Source of the DNA: Candidatus Marinacidobacterales bacterium
Lineage (GTDB): Bacteria > Acidobacteriota > Vicinamibacteria > Marinacidobacterales > DATDRI01
Reading direction: 5' to 3'
NCBI GenBank assembly: GCA_965219415.1
Contig: OZ244742.1
Span: forward strand, 544,001-608,000
Length of the DNA: 64,000 nt
Shown here: positions 16,698 through 26,999 of the stretch, piece by piece
How positions within the stretch are numbered: position 1 is the first letter of the stretch
How the letters are laid out: each line of letters starts with the position of its first letter
Translations under genes and position numbers: made by a program
The notes under the pieces: generated by a model
What the model was told of the DNA's origin: nothing
Databases searched by the model: none
The model's input: only the letters and a program-made list of their open reading frames with translations

Positions 16698-18113
16698 ATG
16701 CGGCGCACCAAGATCATCGCCACCCTCGGTCCGGCTTCCTACCAGGCCAACGTCATCGAGCGTCTCATGGAAAGCGGCGTGAACGTTTTTCGGCTCAATT
16801 TCTCTCACGGGACCCACCGGCAACACCAAGAAACCCTCGAAACCGTGCGTCGGATCGCGAAACGGCTCGGCCAGGCGGTCGCGTGTCTACAAGACCTCTC
16901 CGGTCCTAAGATTCGAACCGGCGATGTTTCGGACAAGAAGGGCGTCCTCCTGAAGGAGGGTGCTACTTTAACGCTGACGACGGAGGCCATGGTTGGAACC
17001 ACCGAGCGTGTCTCCACGACTTACCGGCATCTTCCTCAGGATGTTCAACCGGGCAAGCGCATCCTCCTCGACGATGGTCTCATCGAATTGGAGGTAGAAG
17101 CCGTCTCTGGTGGGGAAGTGAAGACCAAGGTCGTGAGCGGCGGCCGTTTGAAGTCGAAAAAGGGCATCAATCTGCCGGGGGTGCGACTCTCCGTTCCTTC
17201 CTTGACTCAAAAGGATCGGGATGACCTCGAATTTGGATTGTCGCTCGACGTGGACTTCGTGGCCCAATCCTTTGTCAGAAGCAAGAAGGACGTGGAAGCA
17301 CTGGGTAGCCTCTTGCAGGAACGGGGGCGCGCCGACATGCCGGTCATTGCGAAGATAGAAAAACCGAGTGCGGTCGATAATCTATCCGACATTCTCGATG
17401 TCGCCCAGGGGGTCATGGTGGCGCGCGGTGATCTCGGAGTCGAGCTCCCGACCGAGCGCGTACCCATGCTTCAAAAGGAGATTATCCACGCCGCGAATGA
17501 GAGGGGGCGGACCGTCATTACCGCAACCCAAATGCTGGAGTCGATGGTGGACCATCACCGTCCGACCAGGGCGGAGGCTACCGACGTCGCCAACGCGATC
17601 TTGGACGGGACCGACGCGCTCATGCTCTCCGCCGAGACCGCATCTGGTAAGTATCCCGTCGAGTCCGTGGCAACCATGGCGCGCATTGCCGAGTACACCG
17701 AGAAAAGCTTGGGGCCACGCCGTCGACGCTCCGACTTCAACACTCTCGAAGGGTCTCCGGTTGCAAGGGCCGTTGCGGTCGGTGCCTGCCGCGCAGCTGA
17801 ACAACTCGGAGCCCGTTACGTCGTCGTTTTCACCGAGTCCGGCTCCACGGCTCGGCTCGTCAGTTACTGCCGGCCGGAATCCGAGATCCTCGCCTTTACC
17901 CCCAATGAGCGCGTGTATCGCCAGCTCGCCATGACGTGGGGGGTTACCCCGGTGCGGGCCCAGCACTATGAAACGACCGACGCTATGCTGGAGTCGGGTA
18001 TGAAGCTTCTTTCGGCGATGGGCAGGGTTGATTCCGGCGACATCGCGATTCTGGTCTGTGGCACGACCACCATCGAGGGCGCCACCAATATGATGAAGAT
18101 ATATCGGTTCTGA
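16698..18113 (+). CDS. pyk: Pyruvate kinase
   Basis: RRTKIIATLGPAS, RLNFSHG, DLSGPKIR, IAKIEK, MVARGDLGVE, TATQMLESM, PTRAEATDVANA. Confidence 0.98.
   Translation: MRRTKIIATLGPASYQANVIERLMESGVNVFRLNFSHGTHRQHQETLETVRRIAKRLGQAVACLQDLSGPKIRTGDVSDKKGVLLKEGATLTLTTEAMVGTTERVSTTYRHLPQDVQPGKRILLDDGLIELEVEAVSGGEVKTKVVSGGRLKSKKGINLPGVRLSVPSLTQKDRDDLEFGLSLDVDFVAQSFVRSKKDVEALGSLLQERGRADMPVIAKIEKPSAVDNLSDILDVAQGVMVARGDLGVELPTERVPMLQKEIIHAANERGRTVITATQMLESMVDHHRPTRAEATDVANAILDGTDALMLSAETASGKYPVESVATMARIAEYTEKSLGPRRRRSDFNTLEGSPVARAVAVGACRAAEQLGARYVVVFTESGSTARLVSYCRPESEILAFTPNERVYRQLAMTWGVTPVRAQHYETTDAMLESGMKLLSAMGRVDSGDIAILVCGTTTIEGATNMMKIYRF
18092..18111 (+). repeat. attL-like direct repeat (3' end of pyk)
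   Basis: GATGAAGATATATCGGTTCT, repeated at 24651-24670 with one mismatch. Confidence 0.85.
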
Positions 18114-18181
18114 GCCGACCGAGCAGTAGGTGATTTCGACCTAGATGTAGCGATTGGAATCATGTTAAAGCCTGTACCTGC

Positions 18182-18213
18182 ATCATACCCGACGTGTTCT
18201 CGGGTCTTGTCAA
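18182..18213 (-). promoter_or_regulatory. Outward-facing TTGACA-N20-TATGAT promoter-like site with a spacer dyad
   Basis: Minus strand TTGACA (18213-18208), 20 bp spacer, TATGAT (18187-18182); ACCCGA-N7-TCGGGT dyad; AT-rich tract upstream. Confidence 0.5.
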
Positions 18214-18235
18214 GTCCTTTTTTTCACAAAAAAAT

Positions 18236-18865
18236 TCACTCGTCATTTTCCGTGATCCTATATTTCGTCAACTCCAGAGAGATGATACCCTGCTCTTCTT
18301 CTTTAGAAAGCCGTTCCGTGAGCGTTTTTAGGAAGTCGACGCCGAACCCGAGACCCTTGACGGCACACTTCCTGAGTTCTTCTAGAGAGTCGCCATAGAT
18401 ACGCGCCTGTTCCTTAAGGCCATCGCTGACGATCTTGTATTTTTCTTTCGCCAAGTCCGTCGCGTCGAGCTTTTCAATCACCTTGCGTCCAACCTCCGAT
18501 TGCGCCCTAGCGACGTCGTTGAGGGCTTCCACTATTTTGGCGTCCGGTAGTAGAAAGCCAGCTTTAACCGCCATCGCGTCCACATCTATAAAGAGTGGCT
18601 CTCTGGTTCGATCGAGGTTCTGAACGCTTTCCTCATCGTGAACAAGGTAAGAAGAACGGATCTGGCGAGTTAGGTTTTGTATTCGCACGAGAAGCTCGAC
18701 GGAATCGATATAGATGCTTCTTTTCAGTGTCCACCACTGCTGTTTCTTCCAAACCAGGAATGAGATCCATTGGCCCAGCAGCATCAAGAGCACAGCGCCT
18801 ACGATCGCGAAAATAAATTGATGCTGTTCAACGAACGTTTTTGCAGGCTCTTCTACCAGGGTCAA
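18236..18865 (-). CDS. Hypothetical protein with N-terminal transmembrane helix
   Basis: 209-aa ORF overlapping the integrase stop by 4 bp; hydrophobic FIFAIVGAVLLMLLGQWISFLVW. Confidence 0.65.
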   Translation of the reverse strand: MTLVEEPAKTFVEQHQFIFAIVGAVLLMLLGQWISFLVWKKQQWWTLKRSIYIDSVELLVRIQNLTRQIRSSYLVHDEESVQNLDRTREPLFIDVDAMAVKAGFLLPDAKIVEALNDVARAQSEVGRKVIEKLDATDLAKEKYKIVSDGLKEQARIYGDSLEELRKCAVKGLGFGVDFLKTLTERLSKEEEQGIISLELTKYRITENDE

Positions 18866-19979
18866 AACAGACTCCCCTCCAGCCGGTCGACCTCATCAAT
18901 CCGATCGGCGGTCGCTAGGTTGTGGAGCTGCGCGTACTTTCCGTACAGATCCAATGTGATCGTTATCACCTTGTGGCCAAGCTGGCGCTGAAGCCAGACC
19001 ATATCCGCTCCCTTCTCGAGGTGGATCCTAGCAAAGGAGTGGCGGAGCGACTTGGGTGTGTGGTGAATCGGTAGCTCGGCCTTCTCGAGGATCTTCTTGA
19101 AACGGTGCGGAAGCTCGCTCGGAAGGTAGTGCGTGCGTCGCCGATTTAGGAACAGCCACGGCGGCATTTCCGGCCAACCCTTGCCGATCTTCTCCTCGGA
19201 CCGCTGAGCCTTCCACCCTAGGAGCGCGGACTTGAGGCCGCTACTCATGTCGACGTAGCGATCATCTCCGGTTTTGGTGCAAATCACCTTGCTCGCGGCA
19301 GAACGTTCCACATGGATCCGCCGGTCTTTGAAGTCGATATCTGTCCACTGAAGCGCGGCCGCCTCGCCAGGCCGGAGTCCGGTTCGCGACATGAGATAGA
19401 AAAGGGGGAAGAGGTCCGGGTCGACTCTCTTTGCCGTCATCAAGAACTTGTTGACCTGGCTCTCCGTGAAGGACTTCACTTTCTCGGGTAGCGAGCTCTG
19501 CAACTTCCCAAGATTCATCCTCGAGGAAAGTTTGGTCGCCGGGTTCACGTGGATGAGCCCATCCTCCACGCCTGGTCGAAGATTTGAGTCAGAAGAAGGT
19601 TGAGCGCTTGAACCGAGCGCGGAGCCTGACCGGCCTCGAGTCGACTCGCCAGAAACTTACGCAACATGGAACGCTTCACGTCGCGGAGCCGGTAGTGGCC
19701 CAGCATAGCAACAATGTGCGCGTTCATCTTCGAATGATAGGTCCGATAGGTTTGCCGGCGGAACGTTGGTTTCTTGACCGCGAGCCACTGCATCGCGTAC
19801 TGGCCGAAGAGAGTTTTCGGGTCGACGCCGGGTTCGTCGTCGAGCTGCGCAATGAGCTCGTCCCTCTCCTTCTCTGAGTGGGTCGTGAGGTTGTGGCGAA
19901 CCTTGTTGATGTCGCGCCAGTGGACGATATAGACGTAGGCCTCAAGTTTCGGTCGCCATACCTTTGTCCACCCCGCCAC
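18862..19979 (-). CDS. Tyrosine recombinase/phage-type integrase; one frameshift at ~19567
   Basis: GTG start after a GGGAG SD-like site; arm-binding and core-binding region in frame 19545..20408; catalytic TGLRPGE, KTG, KSLRH, LGH, LYG. Confidence 0.9.
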
Positions 19980-19998
19980 GTGGTCTCTCCCTTTTCTA

Positions 19999-20857
19999 TG
20001 GAACGTAATCGTCGGAGATAATGCGACCGGCAAGACCACGCTTCTACGGGCACTGGCGATAGGCCTCTGCGACGCGTCGAGCGCAGCGGGACTCGTTCGC
20101 GAGCTGAAGGGTGGGCTGTGCCGGTCCAACTCAAAAGAAGGCGAGATCGTTATCGAATTACGCGAGCGTGAAAAGTCTCGGAGGTCTTGGACGATCAAGA
20201 CGATCCTTGAAGTGATTGAGAATACTGGCGAGCAGGTCACGCAAGAAGTCTTCTCAACGACGATCGATGACGTGTGCGGTGGAGCCAAGTCTATCGATAA
20301 CCGTAACTTTCCTTGGGAGAAGTTATTCGTCGTCGGGTACGGTCCAGGGCGAGCTGTCGAAGGCCGCGAGGAATACACCGAGTATCGGAACGTTGACGCC
20401 GTATACACCCTGTTCCGCTATGACCAGCCGCTCCAGAGCCCCGAACTCGCTTGGCGACGGTTGCAGTCAGCCGCAGCAGAGAAGGCAGCGCCGAGAAAGA
20501 AAGCGCTCGCGCAAGGGTCGATCTGCAAATCCAAGATTTGCTCAACGACGTTCTGGATCTTCAGCACGGTGAATTTGCGGAGCTGCGACCCAAAGGCATA
20601 TATCTCAAGAGAGTCGAGGGCACTCAACCGCTAAGCTCACATGCGGACGGGTATCGGTCTACAACAGCATGGGCGCTTGATTTGCTCGCATGGAGACTGC
20701 TTTTTAACCGCGGTCGTCTCGCCGATTCAATGGATGGTATCGTGTTGATAGACGAGCTTGAGCAGCATCTTCACCCTCGCTGGCAACGTTTTCTCGTCGC
20801 AAAGCTTGCTCGACAATTCCCAACGCTACAGTTCATAGCCCCAACGCACTCTGCGTT
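19999..20857 (+). pseudogene. ABC-type ATPase fragment (AAA_21/PtuA/AbiEii-like)
   Basis: Walker A VGDNATGKTTLL, YGPGR, signature-like SHADGYR, Walker B IDELEQHLHPRWQ, THS. No start codon, frameshift ~20500, cut by an IS remnant. Confidence 0.82.
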
Positions 20858-21060
20858 GGAGTCAAGCCCATTCTTAGTTGAAACTCTCCACGGCTCACGT
20901 TTAAGCGACCTTCTTCTTCGATACGGTTGATGTCTTCGCCTCGATCTTCAGTTCCCGCTTGAGAGCTTCGCGAAGCTTGGGAAGATGGCGGTAGCCCACC
21001 ACCTTCCTCAAGCGCGGTTCGATGTCTACGAGCGCCGTTGCCAACCAGCGCTGGCGTTGG
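20858..21060 (-). mobile_element. IS256-family remnant (transposase C-terminus and terminal IR)
   Basis: Translation QRQRWLATALVDIEPRLRKVVGYRHLPKLREAL...KKVA*, followed by TTCAACTAAGAATGGGCTTGACTCC. Confidence 0.75.
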
Positions 21061-21123
21061 CTTATGTGGTGGCCGCCTAACGTAAGTATTCTCCCTGAGG
21101 TAGGGGCAAATTAGGACACTACC
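21060..21123 (+). mobile_element. Possible second IS256-type right-end remnant
   Basis: ...YVVAA* followed by GGCAAATTAGGACACTACC, resembling IS256 right ends (pattern recognition only). Confidence 0.35.
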
Positions 21124-21180
21124 ACTGAAGGTCCTGTTATTTCGTGTCCCTCACACTCTGCGCCCGGACGGCAATTTTGG

Positions 21181-22550
21181 AGCTCTTGTCAATAGGTGTG
21201 TAAAAAAGTTCAGGCAGCAGCAACCTTCGACGACTCCGTTACCCTGTCTCCATCTTCAAATCGAACGCCCAGGTGAACCTCTCGCATCAGCTCCGGTGCG
21301 TTGAGCCGGCGAAAATTCTTCTCCGCAACCAGAAGCAGTTTGAAGATTGTCGCAGTGGCGGACTCGACTTTCTTGAACCTTTTGGCCGCATCCGTTCTCA
21401 ATCTCAGTGCAGCGAACGGTGACTCCACGACGTTGCTCGTGCGAAGGTGTTGCCAGTGAGGCTTGGGAAAGGAATAGAAGCTGACCATCCGCTCCCAGTC
21501 CTCGTCGAGCACGTGCGCGGCCCCCGGAAGACCCTTGCGCAAGCACCAATCCTGGAACTTGGCCTTCTTCGTCTCGCACTCCTGCAGGCTGGTGGGGTAG
21601 GGGGTCGCCGTCAACAGCGGCTTGGCCTGCGCCTGGTCCCTTTTCGGAATCCGGTCCAGTACGTTGAGGATTCGGTGGTTCCAGCACCGCTGCTCCTCAG
21701 CTTCTGGAAATACGTTTCGGGTCGCGGCCCAGATGCCGAGATGACCGTCACCGATCACCAAACGGGGACATCTCAGACCGCGCTTCTTCAGTCTCCGTAG
21801 CAGCGACGACCATGACGCTTCGGATTCTCGATGCCCGGCCTCCAGCGTCAGGACGATTTTCGTCCCGTCGGACAGGCCACCAACCGCAACTAGCACCGCC
21901 GCCTTGTCCTTCTCAAGGCCGGCCTTCACGTACACGCCATCTACCCACAGGGACACGAGCTCGAGTTCGTCCAGTGGGCGAGCTAGCCACTGCTCGTACT
22001 CTCCCTGCCATTTCTGTTTCAGCCGCGACACCGTGCTGGGAGAAAGTGGAGCGTCCTCCCCTAGAAGCCCGCGGAGCGCCAAATCGAAATCTCCGTGAGC
22101 TAGTCCATGCAGGTACAGCTCCGGAATCAACTCGCTCACCGTTTCGCTCCGACGCTTGAACAGCGGAAGCACTCGACTTTCGAACCTCTCCTCCACGTCC
22201 CCTACTCTCGGCCGGCGAACCGTCACCGTGCCCACGCTCATCGTCAGCTTCCGAGGCTTACCGTATCCATTTCGATAGCCCGCCGTTGTGTCCACGGGCT
22301 TCCGTCTCTCCGATTTCTCACGCCCGAGAAGCTCCGTGACTTCGGCTACCATCAGCTCCTGCACCCAATCCTGGATCTCGAGCCTCGCCCACTTCTCCAG
22401 CGACTCCCAAGCCACCCTTGACGAGCTCCGTCGTCCTGTGGTCTTTTCCTTCATGGCGGTGTCTCCTTCCGTTGGCCCCTTCACGCCGTGTTTCGTGACG
22501 CGGAAGGTTACTCCGCCTTTACTTTATTTCCACACCTTCTGAGGGTAGCT
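21181..22550 (-). mobile_element. Complete IS256-family element with target-site duplication
   Basis: IRs AGCTCTTGTCAATAGGTGTG / AGCTACCCTCAGAAGGTGTG; flanking direct repeat CAATTTTGG at 21172-21180 and 22551-22559. Confidence 0.92.
21210..22454 (-). CDS. IS256-family transposase
   Basis: GYRNGYGK, LWVDGV, IGDGHLG, EQRCWNH, LRTSNVVESPF. Confidence 0.95.
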   Translation of the reverse strand: MKEKTTGRRSSSRVAWESLEKWARLEIQDWVQELMVAEVTELLGREKSERRKPVDTTAGYRNGYGKPRKLTMSVGTVTVRRPRVGDVEERFESRVLPLFKRRSETVSELIPELYLHGLAHGDFDLALRGLLGEDAPLSPSTVSRLKQKWQGEYEQWLARPLDELELVSLWVDGVYVKAGLEKDKAAVLVAVGGLSDGTKIVLTLEAGHRESEASWSSLLRRLKKRGLRCPRLVIGDGHLGIWAATRNVFPEAEEQRCWNHRILNVLDRIPKRDQAQAKPLLTATPYPTSLQECETKKAKFQDWCLRKGLPGAAHVLDEDWERMVSFYSFPKPHWQHLRTSNVVESPFAALRLRTDAAKRFKKVESATATIFKLLLVAEKNFRRLNAPELMREVHLGVRFEDGDRVTESSKVAAA

Positions 22551-22719
22551 CAATTTTGGATTGAACAACGGCCTGTTTCCAGAAGGACTGGAGAATCTAG
22601 GGACGACTCGCCGCTGAATTCTTGCCCTTAATTGAAGACGGCCCGTGCTGGAGGCCCCAGCCGACATTTACTGCGAAGCCTTACGACTTAGCTTCCGCCT
22701 CGAAGAGGCCGGCCGTTGG

Positions 22720-23142
22720 TCAACGGGCTTTCTTGTGAAGCGAGCGCGACGGGGGAACGATGGTAAAAGAGGATTCTCCCTCTGGCTCCGGGCTCGACGA
22801 AGGTGGAACGATGGCGAATTTCATGATGTCTCGGATGGCAAGGGCCGTCTCGGGCGGGACTTTCGTCAGACGCATGCCGTAACCGGGCGGTAAAGCGCCC
22901 GTGGATTGAGCACCCTGGTTATCCCACTGCACTAGGCCCTCCGCCTCGACCGGCTGTTCCGTATCGCTCAGCAGGAACAGCAGCAGACGAACCGTCGCTT
23001 GGGGCAAAATGCGCATGTTGGTGGCGATGTAGACGCCGCCGTGCGAAAGAGAGAGGACAGTCCCTTGGCCCCGGTGGAATGCTGTCTTGATTATGACAGC
23101 GTGCTCCCCGGAGAGGTCGACCCGCGAGACTAAGACCGCCAT
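22720..23142 (-). CDS. PilZ-like domain protein
   Basis: SLSHGGVYI, EAEGLVQW, PPGYGMR; no clear RxxxR motif. Confidence 0.65.
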   Translation of the reverse strand: MAVLVSRVDLSGEHAVIIKTAFHRGQGTVLSLSHGGVYIATNMRILPQATVRLLLFLLSDTEQPVEAEGLVQWDNQGAQSTGALPPGYGMRLTKVPPETALAIRDIMKFAIVPPSSSPEPEGESSFTIVPPSRSLHKKAR

Positions 23143-23607
23143 GCTACCATTCTCATCTTCAGCATTGGGGGTCGCTGCGAGGTGGCCCCGAGAGACGCTC
23201 GGATTCGAGACTCGGAACTACTCTCACGATATAGGGATAGGGCAAGAATTGCCGTGATGCGGGTCACACGTCACGAGAATTCTAAGGGGTGCGTCCGCAA
23301 ATTTCGTGGTTGGGTACCGGAGGGAAGGCAGCGGGCGTGTGCAAGGCTCGTCTCGGAGGTTCGAGCCAGGCTGACCGGTAAGGTAATCGACTACGGGGCT
23401 CCGTGTGTGACTGGATCGTTGATACAGGTCAAATTGACAACGTCCAGCAGCTTCACTTAGAATAGAAATAACTCATCATAGAGGCCTCTAGTCCTGGCGC
23501 CGCAGAGCGCCTACGCGAAGAAGCGTGTTTTTCGGGAGCTTTTTGACGATTTACCACCTGCTCGGGGCTCCCGCACTGAAACTCAGAGAGGAATCATCGG
23601 GAGCCTC

Positions 23608-24036
23608 ATGAGAGATATCGAAAGGGCGAGACCAAAAGTCCTTCGCAACGCATGGCGTTCTCTCAAACTGCAAGGCGTTGGCTATGCGAAGCTGTGGCAC
23701 CGCTTCGATTATCCCGAGGAATGCTGCGGCGGCGTGTTGGTCTGGCGCGTGCGCATAGGAGGCCCCAAGCCTCGCAGACGGGTCGTTCGATCTGACGTCA
23801 ACGTACAAGAACTGAAATACGGAATCACCCGGAGCGATTGTGGGAGGACCTGGCAACACCAAGGTCGTGATAAGTTGAAACTTAGAAAACTGGGAGAAGG
23901 AGAGTTGCGGAAGGATCTGTTCTTGCTACAGCAGGATGTGTTCCCCGAGGCTCTCGCATGCGTGGCGTTCATTGAACCCAGGATCCAATCGCAAACCGAA
24001 GTCGATCCTTCAGAAAGGACTGTTTCCGGAAGTTAA
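23608..24036 (+). CDS. Hypothetical protein
   Basis: 142-aa ORF with GGGAG upstream; no recognisable motif. Confidence 0.35.
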   Translation: MRDIERARPKVLRNAWRSLKLQGVGYAKLWHRFDYPEECCGGVLVWRVRIGGPKPRRRVVRSDVNVQELKYGITRSDCGRTWQHQGRDKLKLRKLGEGELRKDLFLLQQDVFPEALACVAFIEPRIQSQTEVDPSERTVSGS

Positions 24037-24055
24037 GTAATCAGGGTTCTCATGG

Positions 24056-24214
24056 CTACCTCCTTGGAAAGACACCGACCAGTCCCGCCCGCCGGCGAGC
24101 CCACTCAAGCTCGTCCTCTTCCCGAGCCTTCGGATCGGTCTCGATGATGTCCGCGACGCACGCGACGCATAGCCGGCCTTCCTCGAGCGGGGAGCCGCAG
24201 GCTTCGCATCTCAT
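24056..24214 (-). CDS. Small zinc-ribbon protein (52 aa, not in the ORF track)
   Basis: MRCEACGSPLEEGRLCVAC... has two CxxC motifs; ATGA overlap with the upstream gene. Confidence 0.6.
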   Translation of the reverse strand: MRCEACGSPLEEGRLCVACVADIIETDPKAREEDELEWARRRAGLVGVFPRR

Positions 24215-24435
24215 TTCGACACCCCTAGCTCCGCCTCCATAGGCGGGATCGCGAAGTTGAGAGCCTTCCGAACGACCGACGCACGTGAAACGGTCGGGTC
24301 GGCATCGGCCGCCTTTTTCGCTTGGACGATTCGATCGAGACGCTCCATCTGCGTGCCGGTGATATAGACAACCAGGCGCTCCATCGAGGGGCCCTCAATA
24401 GCCTTTGGTGGCTTCGCGTGGCTCACAGGGCACAC
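24211..24435 (-). CDS. Ribbon-helix-helix (CopG-like) DNA-binding protein
   Basis: MERLVVYIT strand, helix, then VSRASVVRKAL; start position uncertain. Confidence 0.65.
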   Translation of the reverse strand: MCPVSHAKPPKAIEGPSMERLVVYITGTQMERLDRIVQAKKAADADPTVSRASVVRKALNFAIPPMEAELGVSK

Positions 24436-24650
24436 CTCTCACTGGACTGCGGGACCCATGTCGGAGCCAAGGACACGCTACGACCAGCAGGATCACTCGG
24501 TACCGGGTTTGTAGCGGTCAGGCGGGGGGGTCTTAGCCCAGTAAATCCGGCCCCTCGAAGAGAAAGGGGAAGGGCCTCCTGGGCCGGCGACTTGTTAGGC
24601 CAGTGTCGCCTGGAGGCGCCTAGTGATCGGCACTCCACAAGCCGAAAGTA

Positions 24651-24670
24651 GATGAAGATTTATCGGTTCT
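24651..24670 (+). repeat. attR-like direct repeat (displaced pyk 3' end)
   Basis: GATGAAGATTTATCGGTTCT then AG; encodes MKIYRF* like the pyk tail. Confidence 0.85.
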
Positions 24671-24692
24671 AGATCTTTTATAATAGACTGAC

Positions 24693-26999
24693 TTGAGCAA
24701 GAAACGTCGAACCCGGCGGCGCCGCTATTCGCGCCTTCGCTTCAAGATTACCTTCGCCGCGCTCACCCTTGTCAGCATCGCACTTTTCTATATTGCCGCG
24801 GTGCTCATCGTCCACTACTTCAAGTTCTCTCGTGAGATCGCCCTGCGGCTCGAAGGCGAGCGGCTGGCGAGGCCAAGCTGGGTCTACGCGCGGCCCTTCG
24901 AGCTGCGCACCCAGCAGAGGCTGTTGGAATCCGAGTTCATCGAGCTTCTGAACTCGCTTCGCTACCAGCGAACCAAGAGCTCCGTGCAAGAGCCGGGTAC
25001 GTTTTACAAAGCCAAAGACGAAATCCGAGTGCATCTAACACACTCCGGAAAAAGCGACTCGCCGCACATCATCGGGGTTCGTTTTTGGGACAAGTCGGTA
25101 CAAGGCATTCGAGAGTTCCCTAGTGAAAACGCCCTCACAACAGTAGGCTTCGAAGCCGTCCCCGTGACAACGCTCTTCGGAGAAGAGCGGAGCAAACAAA
25201 GGTGGGTGTCTCTAGAGGAGATCCCGCCTCTCGTCATCGAGGCGGTGCTGGCTACCGAGGACCGTCGGTTCTTCGAGCACACCGGTCTCGATCCCGTTGG
25301 GATCGTGAGAGCCGCATGGCTGGACATCAAGAGCGGCGAAGTAAAACAGGGAGGAAGCACGCTCAGCCAACAGCTGGTCAAGAACTACTTCTTGACCCCG
25401 GAAAGAACCGTGCGGCGCAAAGCCCTAGAAGCCTTTCTCGCCATCATCCTCGAAAGCCGCGCAAGTAAGGAAGAGATCCTCCAGCTCTATCTCAACGATG
25501 TGTACTTAGGCCAGCGTGGCTCGTTCGGAATCAACGGTGTGGGCCAAGCGGCCAAGATCTATTTCGGTAAGGACGTCAAGAACCTGGAGCTCGAAGAAGC
25601 TGCACTCTTGGCAGCTCTCATCCGTGCGCCCAACGCCGCGTCCCCTTTCCGACATGCGGACAAGGCCCGCGCCCGCAGGGACATCGTGCTCGACCAAATG
25701 GCGCGCCATGGTTTCATCGAGCGAGACGCCGCAGAGGCAGCCGCCGCGAGACCGCTTCGAATCGAGATCGGGGCGGTGGACGTGGGTGAAGCCCCTTACT
25801 TCATCGACGCTCTACGCGAAGAGCTCTTCGACCGCTACCCACCGGAAGCGACCGTCAACCTGACCGTGCACTCCACGATGGATCGATATCTTCAAACCGC
25901 CGCCCAGCGCGCGGTGGCGGACGGACTCACCGAGATCGGGGAGAAACTCTCCGGAAAGAACAAACCCCGGGACGTCCAGGCGGCCCTCATTGTGATGGAG
26001 CCCTCTCGCGGGGACGTCCTGGCGCTCGTTGGTGGACGAAGCTACGGTCTCAGTCAATTCAACCGGGCGACCGAAGCACGACGTCAGCCGGGAAGCGCCT
26101 TCAAGCCCTTCGTCTACCTCGCCGCTTTCGAGCGAAGCTACGAGTTGACGCGCATCGGTGGTTCATCGATCCGATACTTCACGCCCGCCAGCGTCGTGCG
26201 CGACGAGCCCACGACGATCTGGCACGGAGGAAGGCCATGGCGCCCGTCCAACTACGATCATCGATTCTCCGGCGACGTCACCTATCGTCACGCCTTGGCT
26301 CGTTCACTCAATGTGGCCACCGCGAAAGTCGGAAAGGAAGTTGGCTACGAACGAGTGGTCAAGCTCTGGGATGCCATCGGAACGCACAGTAATCTCCAAC
26401 CATACCCTTCCGTCGTGCTGGGAGCCTTCGAAATGACACCACTGGACCTGGCCACCGCCTACACCGTCATCGCTAACCATGGTGTCCGCGTCGATCCTCG
26501 ATTCTTCGTCGAGGTCAAAGACGCCAAGGGACGGACCCCCGACCGGTTGGAGACCGCCCGCCATGCGGTAGCGCATCCGGCGAGCGCCTATCTGGTAACC
26601 GACATGATGCGAAGCGTCATCGACCGGGGCACGGCGAGAGAGATTCGGGCGCGCGGTTTCAAAGCGGTCGCTGCCGGCAAGACCGGCACCACCAACGATA
26701 CTCGCGACGCCTGGTTCGTCGGGTTCACGCCTGACCTACTCGCCATCGTGTGGGTCGGATACGATGACAACAAACCGCTGGGACTCACCGGCTCGCAAGC
26801 GGCATTGCCGATATGGACCCGCTTTATGAAGTCCGCGGTCTCCGGTCGAGAGAGTGGAGTGTTCGAGCCACCGAGCGGCGTGACCTTCGCCCGCATCGAT
26901 CCCGAAACGGGGCAGCTCGCGCGAGCATCTTGCCCCAGCGGCCAGTCCGAGACTTTCATCACCGGTACTGAGCCGCGCGCCTTCTGCGCCCGACACTAA
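24693..26999 (+). CDS. mrcB: Class A penicillin-binding protein (PBP1b-like)
   Basis: TM helix; UB2H-like region; EDRRFFEHTG, GGSTLSQQLVKN, RKALE; SAFK, SLN and KTG transpeptidase motifs. Confidence 0.9.
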   Translation: MSKKRRTRRRRYSRLRFKITFAALTLVSIALFYIAAVLIVHYFKFSREIALRLEGERLARPSWVYARPFELRTQQRLLESEFIELLNSLRYQRTKSSVQEPGTFYKAKDEIRVHLTHSGKSDSPHIIGVRFWDKSVQGIREFPSENALTTVGFEAVPVTTLFGEERSKQRWVSLEEIPPLVIEAVLATEDRRFFEHTGLDPVGIVRAAWLDIKSGEVKQGGSTLSQQLVKNYFLTPERTVRRKALEAFLAIILESRASKEEILQLYLNDVYLGQRGSFGINGVGQAAKIYFGKDVKNLELEEAALLAALIRAPNAASPFRHADKARARRDIVLDQMARHGFIERDAAEAAAARPLRIEIGAVDVGEAPYFIDALREELFDRYPPEATVNLTVHSTMDRYLQTAAQRAVADGLTEIGEKLSGKNKPRDVQAALIVMEPSRGDVLALVGGRSYGLSQFNRATEARRQPGSAFKPFVYLAAFERSYELTRIGGSSIRYFTPASVVRDEPTTIWHGGRPWRPSNYDHRFSGDVTYRHALARSLNVATAKVGKEVGYERVVKLWDAIGTHSNLQPYPSVVLGAFEMTPLDLATAYTVIANHGVRVDPRFFVEVKDAKGRTPDRLETARHAVAHPASAYLVTDMMRSVIDRGTAREIRARGFKAVAAGKTGTTNDTRDAWFVGFTPDLLAIVWVGYDDNKPLGLTGSQAALPIWTRFMKSAVSGRESGVFEPPSGVTFARIDPETGQLARASCPSGQSETFITGTEPRAFCARH

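Follow-up and report, generated by a model that had tools for sequence, protein, structure and literature searches.

The locus considered here lies within a stretch of 64,000 nucleotides from the forward strand of contig OZ244742.1 (positions 544,001 to 608,000; assembly GCA_965219415.1) of a Candidatus Marinacidobacterales bacterium belonging to the phylum Acidobacteriota. This whole stretch is referred to as the window, and positions are numbered from its first base. In the window, the gene for a pyruvate kinase (pyk) and the gene for a class A penicillin-binding protein (PBP) are separated by DNA that contains a tyrosine integrase gene, the remains of a PtuA-like ATPase gene and sequences from two insertion sequence (IS) elements of the IS256 family, and which is bounded by the two copies of a 20-bp direct repeat. 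The PBP gene begins 22 bases past the right copy of this repeat and it is now 6.56 kb away from pyk. An initial annotation of this DNA had proposed that the region is an integrative element that is inserted at the 3' end of pyk and rebuilds the end of this gene. The results described below bear this proposal out, and they make it very likely that the segment from 18112 to 24650 is a horizontally acquired genomic island, which arose by tyrosine-integrase recombination of an attachment site carried by the element (attP) with a chromosomal attachment site (attB) at the end of pyk.

The left copy of the repeat, GATGAAGATATATCGGTTCT, terminates the pyk open reading frame (ORF), which ends in the residues NMMKIYRF followed by TGA, and the right copy, GATGAAGATTTATCGGTTCT, encodes the residues MKIYRF followed by TAG. 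The repeat pair is identical in 19 of 20 positions and, exactly as was noted in the initial annotation, the differences between the two copies consist of a synonymous change in an isoleucine codon (ATA versus ATT) and an exchanged stop codon. The final six codons of pyk are contained within the left copy, and the TGA stop codon of this gene occupies positions 18111-18113, in contrast to the TAG that is found at the corresponding place in two relatives of the same genus (G001 and G002). A pattern of the repeat that allowed for two mismatches had two matches in the window and no match of any kind in 100 dinucleotide-preserving shuffles. In the entire genome of 8,046,490 bases, these are the only two copies of the repeat core with one mismatch or less; two further copies carry 2 and 3 mismatches.

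The relationship of this locus to those in related bacteria was examined by searching for the pyk protein in 40 relatives, and, leaving aside the genome of the window itself, the 19 best loci were inspected. In 18 of these 19 loci (17 of 18 if the unpublished genome G007 is left out), the PBP gene is the immediate downstream neighbour of pyk and has the same orientation, and as this arrangement is also present in G002, it holds for 19 of 20 relatives overall. In the sole exception (L021), genes for a CN-hydrolase and a major facilitator superfamily (MFS) transporter lie downstream of pyk, and no integrase is present. The distance between the co-oriented pyk and PBP genes is 22-160 bases in the three genomes of this genus. 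The empty junction that the initial annotation had suggested should be sought was recovered in its exact form from G001, whose pyk protein is 89% identical to that of the window. In this genome the junction consists of the left flank of the left repeat copy, a single copy of the core (T at position 10, stop codon TAG) and the right flank of the right repeat copy. When the flanks of the window were compared with G001 by BLAST, the left flank was 88.5% and the right flank 88.4% identical, the two alignments overlapped by exactly the 20-base core, and no island DNA aligned to the pyk-PBP stretch of this genome. Both halves of the island were also sought in 20 relatives and were found in none of them, barring one 34-base match with an E value of 9e-4; a search of a plasmid collection likewise did not find the island DNA. 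The G+C content of the island without its IS DNA is 0.562, compared with 0.60 and 0.59 for its two flanks. Due to the empty site, the conserved gene order, the absence of island DNA from the relatives examined and this difference in G+C content, the segment from 18112 to 24650 is recognized as an insertion into a conserved pyk-PBP junction, and its end repeats correspond to the one copy present at the empty site of the relative. The two copies of the repeat are hence referred to as attL (left) and attR (right). The features of this locus are listed in Table 1.

Table 1. Positions of genes and other features at the pyk-PBP locus (window coordinates).
Feature	Position	Strand	Basis or remarks
pyk, pyruvate kinase, 481 aa	16668..18113	+	ORF; PF00224 E 5e-121, PF02887 E 8.7e-33
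attL core, left copy of 20-bp repeat	18092..18111	+	Repeat search, G001 junction alignment
orf209, 209 aa	18236..18865	-	ORF; overlaps integrase stop by 4 bases
Tyrosine integrase gene, broken	18862..19979	-	PF00589 on C-terminal part, PF14659 on N-terminal part
PtuA-like (Septu-type) AAA ATPase pseudogene	19939..20858	+	PADLOC PtuA models
204-bp terminal stump of second IS256-family element	20859..21062		Genome copies, full extent from another copy
Complete IS256-family insertion sequence	21181..22551	-	Transposase 21210-22484, 424 aa
PilZ-like 140-aa ORF, cargo	22720..23142	-	PF07238 E 1.3e-4, 22.6 bits vs cut-off 22.5 (marginal)
74-aa ORF adjoining attR	24211..24435	-	ORF; sole family match TraM, E 0.096
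attR core, right copy of 20-bp repeat	24651..24670	+	Repeat search, G001 junction alignment
Class A PBP gene, ancestral downstream neighbour of pyk	24693..26999	+	PF00912 E 5e-64, PF00905 E 2.9e-27

Two other observations concern the pyruvate kinase genes themselves. The genome contains a second pyruvate kinase paralogue (G000:C3:5091000-5092397), which is 41% identical to the first, and several of the relatives are likewise provided with a second gene. In four relatives (G002:C7:24579-26020, G004:C14, G005:C11 and G016:C11), the pyk match is in two pieces or contains an internal stop codon, which could reflect frameshifts or assembly errors in those genomes.

The junctions of the island are also seen in contigs that were assembled from sequencing runs (Logan contigs). 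In run X5, one contig of 14.5 kb spans positions 17600-20884 and another of 10 kb spans positions 22526-25200, both with 0 differences to the window. The contigs of run X7, which comes from a different study, also span the attL and attR junctions. As either X5 or X7 may be the source of the assembly, this agreement is a matter of consistency rather than of independent confirmation. The junctions, in any case, are not an artefact of assembly.

The proximity of an integrase gene to one attachment site, the collapse of the two repeats to a single copy at the empty site and the restoration of the target gene end by DNA of the element together constitute the signature of a tyrosine integrase. Based upon these features, the attB would correspond to the last 20 bases of pyk, and the attP on the element would have brought along a version of the final six codons of pyk together with a stop codon. 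The hybrid attL therefore leaves pyk at its full length and its protein unchanged, and the displaced original end of pyk persists at attR, ahead of the PBP gene. To the right of attL, the DNA (with the TGA) is that of the element, and to the right of attR (with the TAG) it is that of the host, as in G001. Strand exchange took place somewhere inside the 20-bp block of identity and may have fallen on either side of the mismatch at position 10. This mismatch affects the third base of a codon and is synonymous, and about 1 base in 9 differs between pyk and its G001 counterpart; attL may thus owe its A at this position either to the element or to the host, in which case the T would belong to the element. 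We infer that the integrase encoded by this island made the insertion and that the element had a circular form. As the insertion separates the PBP gene from the co-oriented pyk, expression of the PBP gene may now depend upon the island.

The tyrosine integrase that the initial annotation had placed near the left end was confirmed by its C-terminal catalytic part (18862-19569, reverse strand), which matches PF00589 with an E value of 3.7e-25 (89.1 bits against a cut-off of 27.1), and the integrase also matches phrog_1 (E 9.3e-38). The 3' end of this gene is 750 bases from attL and it converges on the 3' end of the target gene pyk. The gene is, however, broken. Its N-terminal part, which contains a SAM-like core-binding domain (PF14659, E 3.3e-09), extends from a GTG codon at 19979, preceded by GGGAG and providing a plausible start, to a premature stop at 19545. 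A deletion of 1 nucleotide between 19569 and 19568 has placed this domain and the catalytic domain in separate frames, so that no single open frame covers the gene. Across the frameshift, the intact relative P0011 reads AMEDGLV, whereas the window reads QAWRMGSST followed by a stop in one frame and VEDGLIHV in the next, and a single homologue of 393 aa is matched by the two parts, at its residues 4-128 and 140-354, respectively. The frameshift is present, with no difference, in the Logan contigs of X5 and X7 from two studies. In an alignment of 10 sequences, the residues R66, K99, R176, H199, and Y209, which we take to be those with catalytic roles in this family, are invariant. The His of the His-x-x-Arg motif is replaced by Lys in the window and in P0011 (PKSLRH), in contrast to the other relatives (PHSLRH).

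An exhaustive search of 1.84 billion representative sequences identified 81 proteins related to this integrase with E values of 1e-30 or better. The closest of these are P0011 (57% identity) and P0012 (55%), both of them metagenomic singletons, and the next relative is only 44% identical; P0011 is a protein of 384 aa that is encoded on an ENA contig of 20,282 bp. A word-based search recovered only relatives with 38% identity or less, and no match with an E value of 1e-45 or better was found in 400 sampled genomes of the phylum. Five homologue loci from the same order (32-39% identity) were located far from pyk, and in three of them (L023, L024, and L025, the last from the unpublished G007) a convergent tRNA gene is present 70-94 bases past the end of the integrase gene. 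Similarly, among the 80 metagenome loci listed (L030-L109; 24-46% identity), which may not include the closest relatives, a convergent tRNA gene (for Lys, Thr, Arg, Leu, Ser or Met) lies within 200 bases of the integrase 3' end in 17. In the resulting 20 tRNA-adjacent relatives (32-46% identity), the tRNA gene is 66-195 bases away and it is specific for Lys, Thr, Asn, Arg, Leu, Ser or Met. These relatives look like typical tRNA-targeting islands, and in terms of its sequence the window integrase falls within a group that is broadly tRNA-targeting.

A number of observations weigh against the interpretation of this locus as a single island that was inserted by its own integrase. The initial annotation had regarded a link between homologues of the integrase and pyk as a means of verifying its proposal. 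No such link was found: neither pyk nor any protein of the island was present at any of the 80 metagenome loci listed or at any of 80 loci from viral contigs (37% identity or less), and the one homologue locus found in the scan of genome contigs (27% identity) also lacked pyk. The association with pyk was accordingly seen in none of the 166 listed homologue loci with readable surroundings. The identity is 46% or less for all of them, and target specificity would not be expected to persist over such a distance. No repeats of the arm type were apparent within 300 bases to the left or right of the core, where the numbers of shared 9- to 11-mers were at or below the shuffle means. No contig joining 18111 to 24671, as expected for an excised or circular form, was found in four runs, a result of little weight as contigs drop rare variants. 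In the island itself, a gene for a 209-aa protein lies between the integrase gene and attL, in contrast to the spacing of 70-200 bases in the tRNA-targeting relatives. Additionally, the homology to PtuA starts 17 bases from the start codon of the integrase gene, in a head-to-head arrangement, and with a gap of this size there is no room for a promoter of the integrase gene or of the PtuA-like gene. The positions 19979-19996 thus probably mark a deletion or fusion junction, and in view of the missing promoter space the island appears to have been rearranged, and its right half may have been acquired separately from the integrase. Lastly, run X1, which holds the locus in part (share 0.37, depth 3-5), contains positions 20063-20858 and 22916-25200, including the ATPase fragment and attR, at about 99% identity, and shows no cover over positions 17854-20062, where the pyk end, orf209 and the integrase gene are located. 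This could be either a coverage gap or a variant island, and with a depth of 5 or less the uncovered parts in X1 and X2 are not interpretable.

Some of these observations also bear on the possibility that the segment is the remnant of a much larger element, such as a prophage, an integrative and conjugative element or a mobilisable element, or that it consists of two tandem elements at one attB which were fused by deletions. We consider such an origin possible, though rather unlikely. It would account for the reduction of one IS256-family copy to 204 bp with loss of the adjoining DNA, for a PtuA-like gene that is without both of its ends and abuts the integrase start, and for the presence in X1 of the ATPase fragment and the right part of the locus, not accompanied by the integrase segment. 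However, no phage structural, replication or conjugation genes were detected in the island, where PHROGs profiles matched only the integrase and the ATPase fragment and where PADLOC, applied to 47 stop-to-stop frames, matched only the PtuA-like frames and found no PtuB partner for them. A third copy of the core, which a tandem array would have left, is also not present inside the island, and at the depth of X1 its gaps may simply be gaps in coverage.

An improbable alternative is that no integration took place in this lineage, and that the island reached it as part of a larger stretch of chromosome, exchanged by homologous recombination with a donor strain in which it was already located at pyk. 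A broken integrase would not be needed for a transfer of this kind, and near-identical island sequences are indeed found in runs from several studies. However, the flanks show no step in divergence from G001, as the identities quoted above for the two sides are virtually equal, and an integrase-mediated insertion into pyk would still have to be postulated for the donor, so that the history of the island would be changed and its nature would remain the same. The notion that the repeat is due to chance or is the target duplication of a transposition, with the intervening DNA representing an IS-driven rearrangement or an assembly chimera, might be entertained for a genome that is rich in IS256-family copies (about 40 and 48) and whose assembly has an estimated contamination of 8.45%, but it is refuted as far as the data allow, as the ends of the island are free of IS copies, which are located in its interior, an 8-bp duplication of its own flanks the complete IS, the 20-bp imperfect duplication matches the boundaries of the relative's empty site exactly and bears no signature of transposition, the repeat did not arise in any of the shuffles, and contigs from other runs span both junctions.

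Insertion of islands by integrases is a well-known process, and the acquisition of a genomic island by integrase-mediated recombination at the end of pyk thus represents a familiar mode at a target that was not found in print. In the initial annotation, tRNA and tmRNA genes had been taken to make up the majority of attB sites. This premise is now dated, as protein-coding genes are common sites of integration: 43.4% of about 1.75 million islands were placed in protein-coding sequences according to the TIGER/Islander announcement (PMC12424338). Another report (PMC12884075) describes it as usual for the target gene to be restored. In the literature, at the level of titles and the opening parts of abstracts, nothing relevant was found on pyk or pyruvate kinase as an attachment site, and pyk is not mentioned in PMC12424338 or PMC12884075; supplements or the TIGER/Islander database may nonetheless list it.

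The closest parallels are provided by e14 and phage 21, which are inserted in the icd gene of Escherichia coli, where the element supplies the 3' end of the gene and a pseudo-end is left behind (PMC6379469, PMC12540744). In both cases, a tyrosine-integrase element occupies the 3' end of a gene for a central-metabolism enzyme, the gene remains intact and a pseudo-end is present at the other junction. The differences are that the target there is icd rather than pyk, that the duplication in e14 is given as 163 bp (PMC6379469), compared with 20 bp (six codons) here, that no amino-acid change is produced in the present case, and that this copy has decayed and is without phage genes. The integrases of phages are related to that of the window only distantly, with identities of 32% or less among the phage-collection matches listed.

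The island also resembles the tRNA-targeting islands with tyrosine integrases of the P4/lambda type. It shares with them an integrase whose relatives are of this kind, the orientation of the integrase 3' end toward the 3' end of the target and a short direct repeat that restores the target. However, its target codes for a protein, and its integrase gene is separated from attL by an additional gene. In this context, attR with the bases next to it contains an 8-bp dyad (7 of 8 positions paired) around a 7-nt spacer, TCGGTTC, that is also present at attB and recalls the stem-loop of a tRNA. A dyad of this quality arose in 109 of 2000 shuffles of attR and in 89 of 2000 of the attB-like string, which makes it weak support, and it is absent from the reconstructed attP-like string. 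It is conceivable, albeit doubtful, that the window integrase forms, together with P0011 and P0012, a small lineage that has shifted from tRNA targets to a specific use of the pyk 3' end through recognition of this stem-loop-like dyad, to which the final codons of pyk, its stop codon and the adjoining intergenic bases would contribute. If this should be true, intact members of the lineage would provide a new integrase-att pair for site-specific insertion in a soil phylum that is poorly tractable. Independently of this, the locus provides an example, with sharp boundaries and a precisely matching empty site, of an integrase-borne island that uses and rebuilds the end of a glycolytic gene. It shows that a member of an integrase group that largely targets tRNA genes can sit at a protein-coding target, and it illustrates the speed at which islands of this kind deteriorate where IS elements are abundant. 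Its wider significance is limited, as large surveys have already placed over 40% of islands in protein-coding genes (PMC12424338) and as this copy is probably dead.

The sole recognisable cargo, when compared with small defence islands of the Septu (PtuA/PtuB) type, is the PtuA-like ATPase. Two frames of this gene were detected by the PADLOC PtuA models, one at 19939-20631 (E 2.7e-15, with the profile matched from positions 26-40, near 19996) and the other at 20424-20927 (E 1.7e-26, positions 197-330 of 444), and the Walker A motif GDNATGKT is retained. In contrast to such islands, the gene is a fragmentary pseudogene that lacks a start codon, carries a frameshift around 20470-20530 and is cut at 20858/20859 by the IS stump, so that the last 23 residues of the second frame are IS sequence. 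Its score with the NCBIfam PtuA model (66.4 bits) is below the cut-off of 500, and the missing PtuB has been noted above.

Next to attL, orf209 has the lowest G+C content in the island (0.495) and, in view of a hydrophobic N-terminal stretch, its product is a predicted membrane-anchored protein. No family match for it was found in Pfam, PHROGs, PADLOC or NCBIfam, and the Atlas contains only unnamed clusters of hypothetical proteins. In the right half of the island, the PilZ-like ORF also matches TIGR02266, a paralogous domain family, with an E value of 5e-12 and a score below the cut-off of that family, and one paralogue of 42% identity is present in the genome. The 74-aa ORF adjoining attR may encode a small ribbon-helix-helix DNA-binding protein, for example a regulator or a directionality factor. 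The remaining frames between 22552 and 24650 had no family matches. A scan of the island for promoters and terminators gave counts that were no higher than those in shuffled sequences (3 versus 1.9 and 8 versus 7.0, respectively).

The island has decayed since its insertion. The integrase gene contains the 1-nt frameshift, the PtuA-like defence cargo is without its start, out of frame and shortened, and two IS256-family elements have entered the island, one of which was truncated afterwards, a sign of a deletion. With a frameshifted integrase gene that lacks space for a promoter, and with the damage done by IS elements, this copy of the island is very probably immobile. The complete IS is flanked by an 8-bp duplication, AATTTTGG, at 21173-21180 and 22552-22559, and its inverted ends read GAGCT...GGTGTG. 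Its transposase matches PF00872 (E 4.5e-58) and NF033543 (275.8 bits against a cut-off of 150), which identifies it as a member of the IS256 family, and about 40 copies of this element, with 99-100% identity, are present in the genome. The second element is about 1435 bp long when whole and is present in about 44-48 genome copies; its transposase (L028) matches NF033543 with 208.6 bits against the same cut-off. Nearly all copies of the two elements in this 8.05-Mb genome are 99-100% identical, and this looks like a recent expansion of IS elements that is breaking genes.

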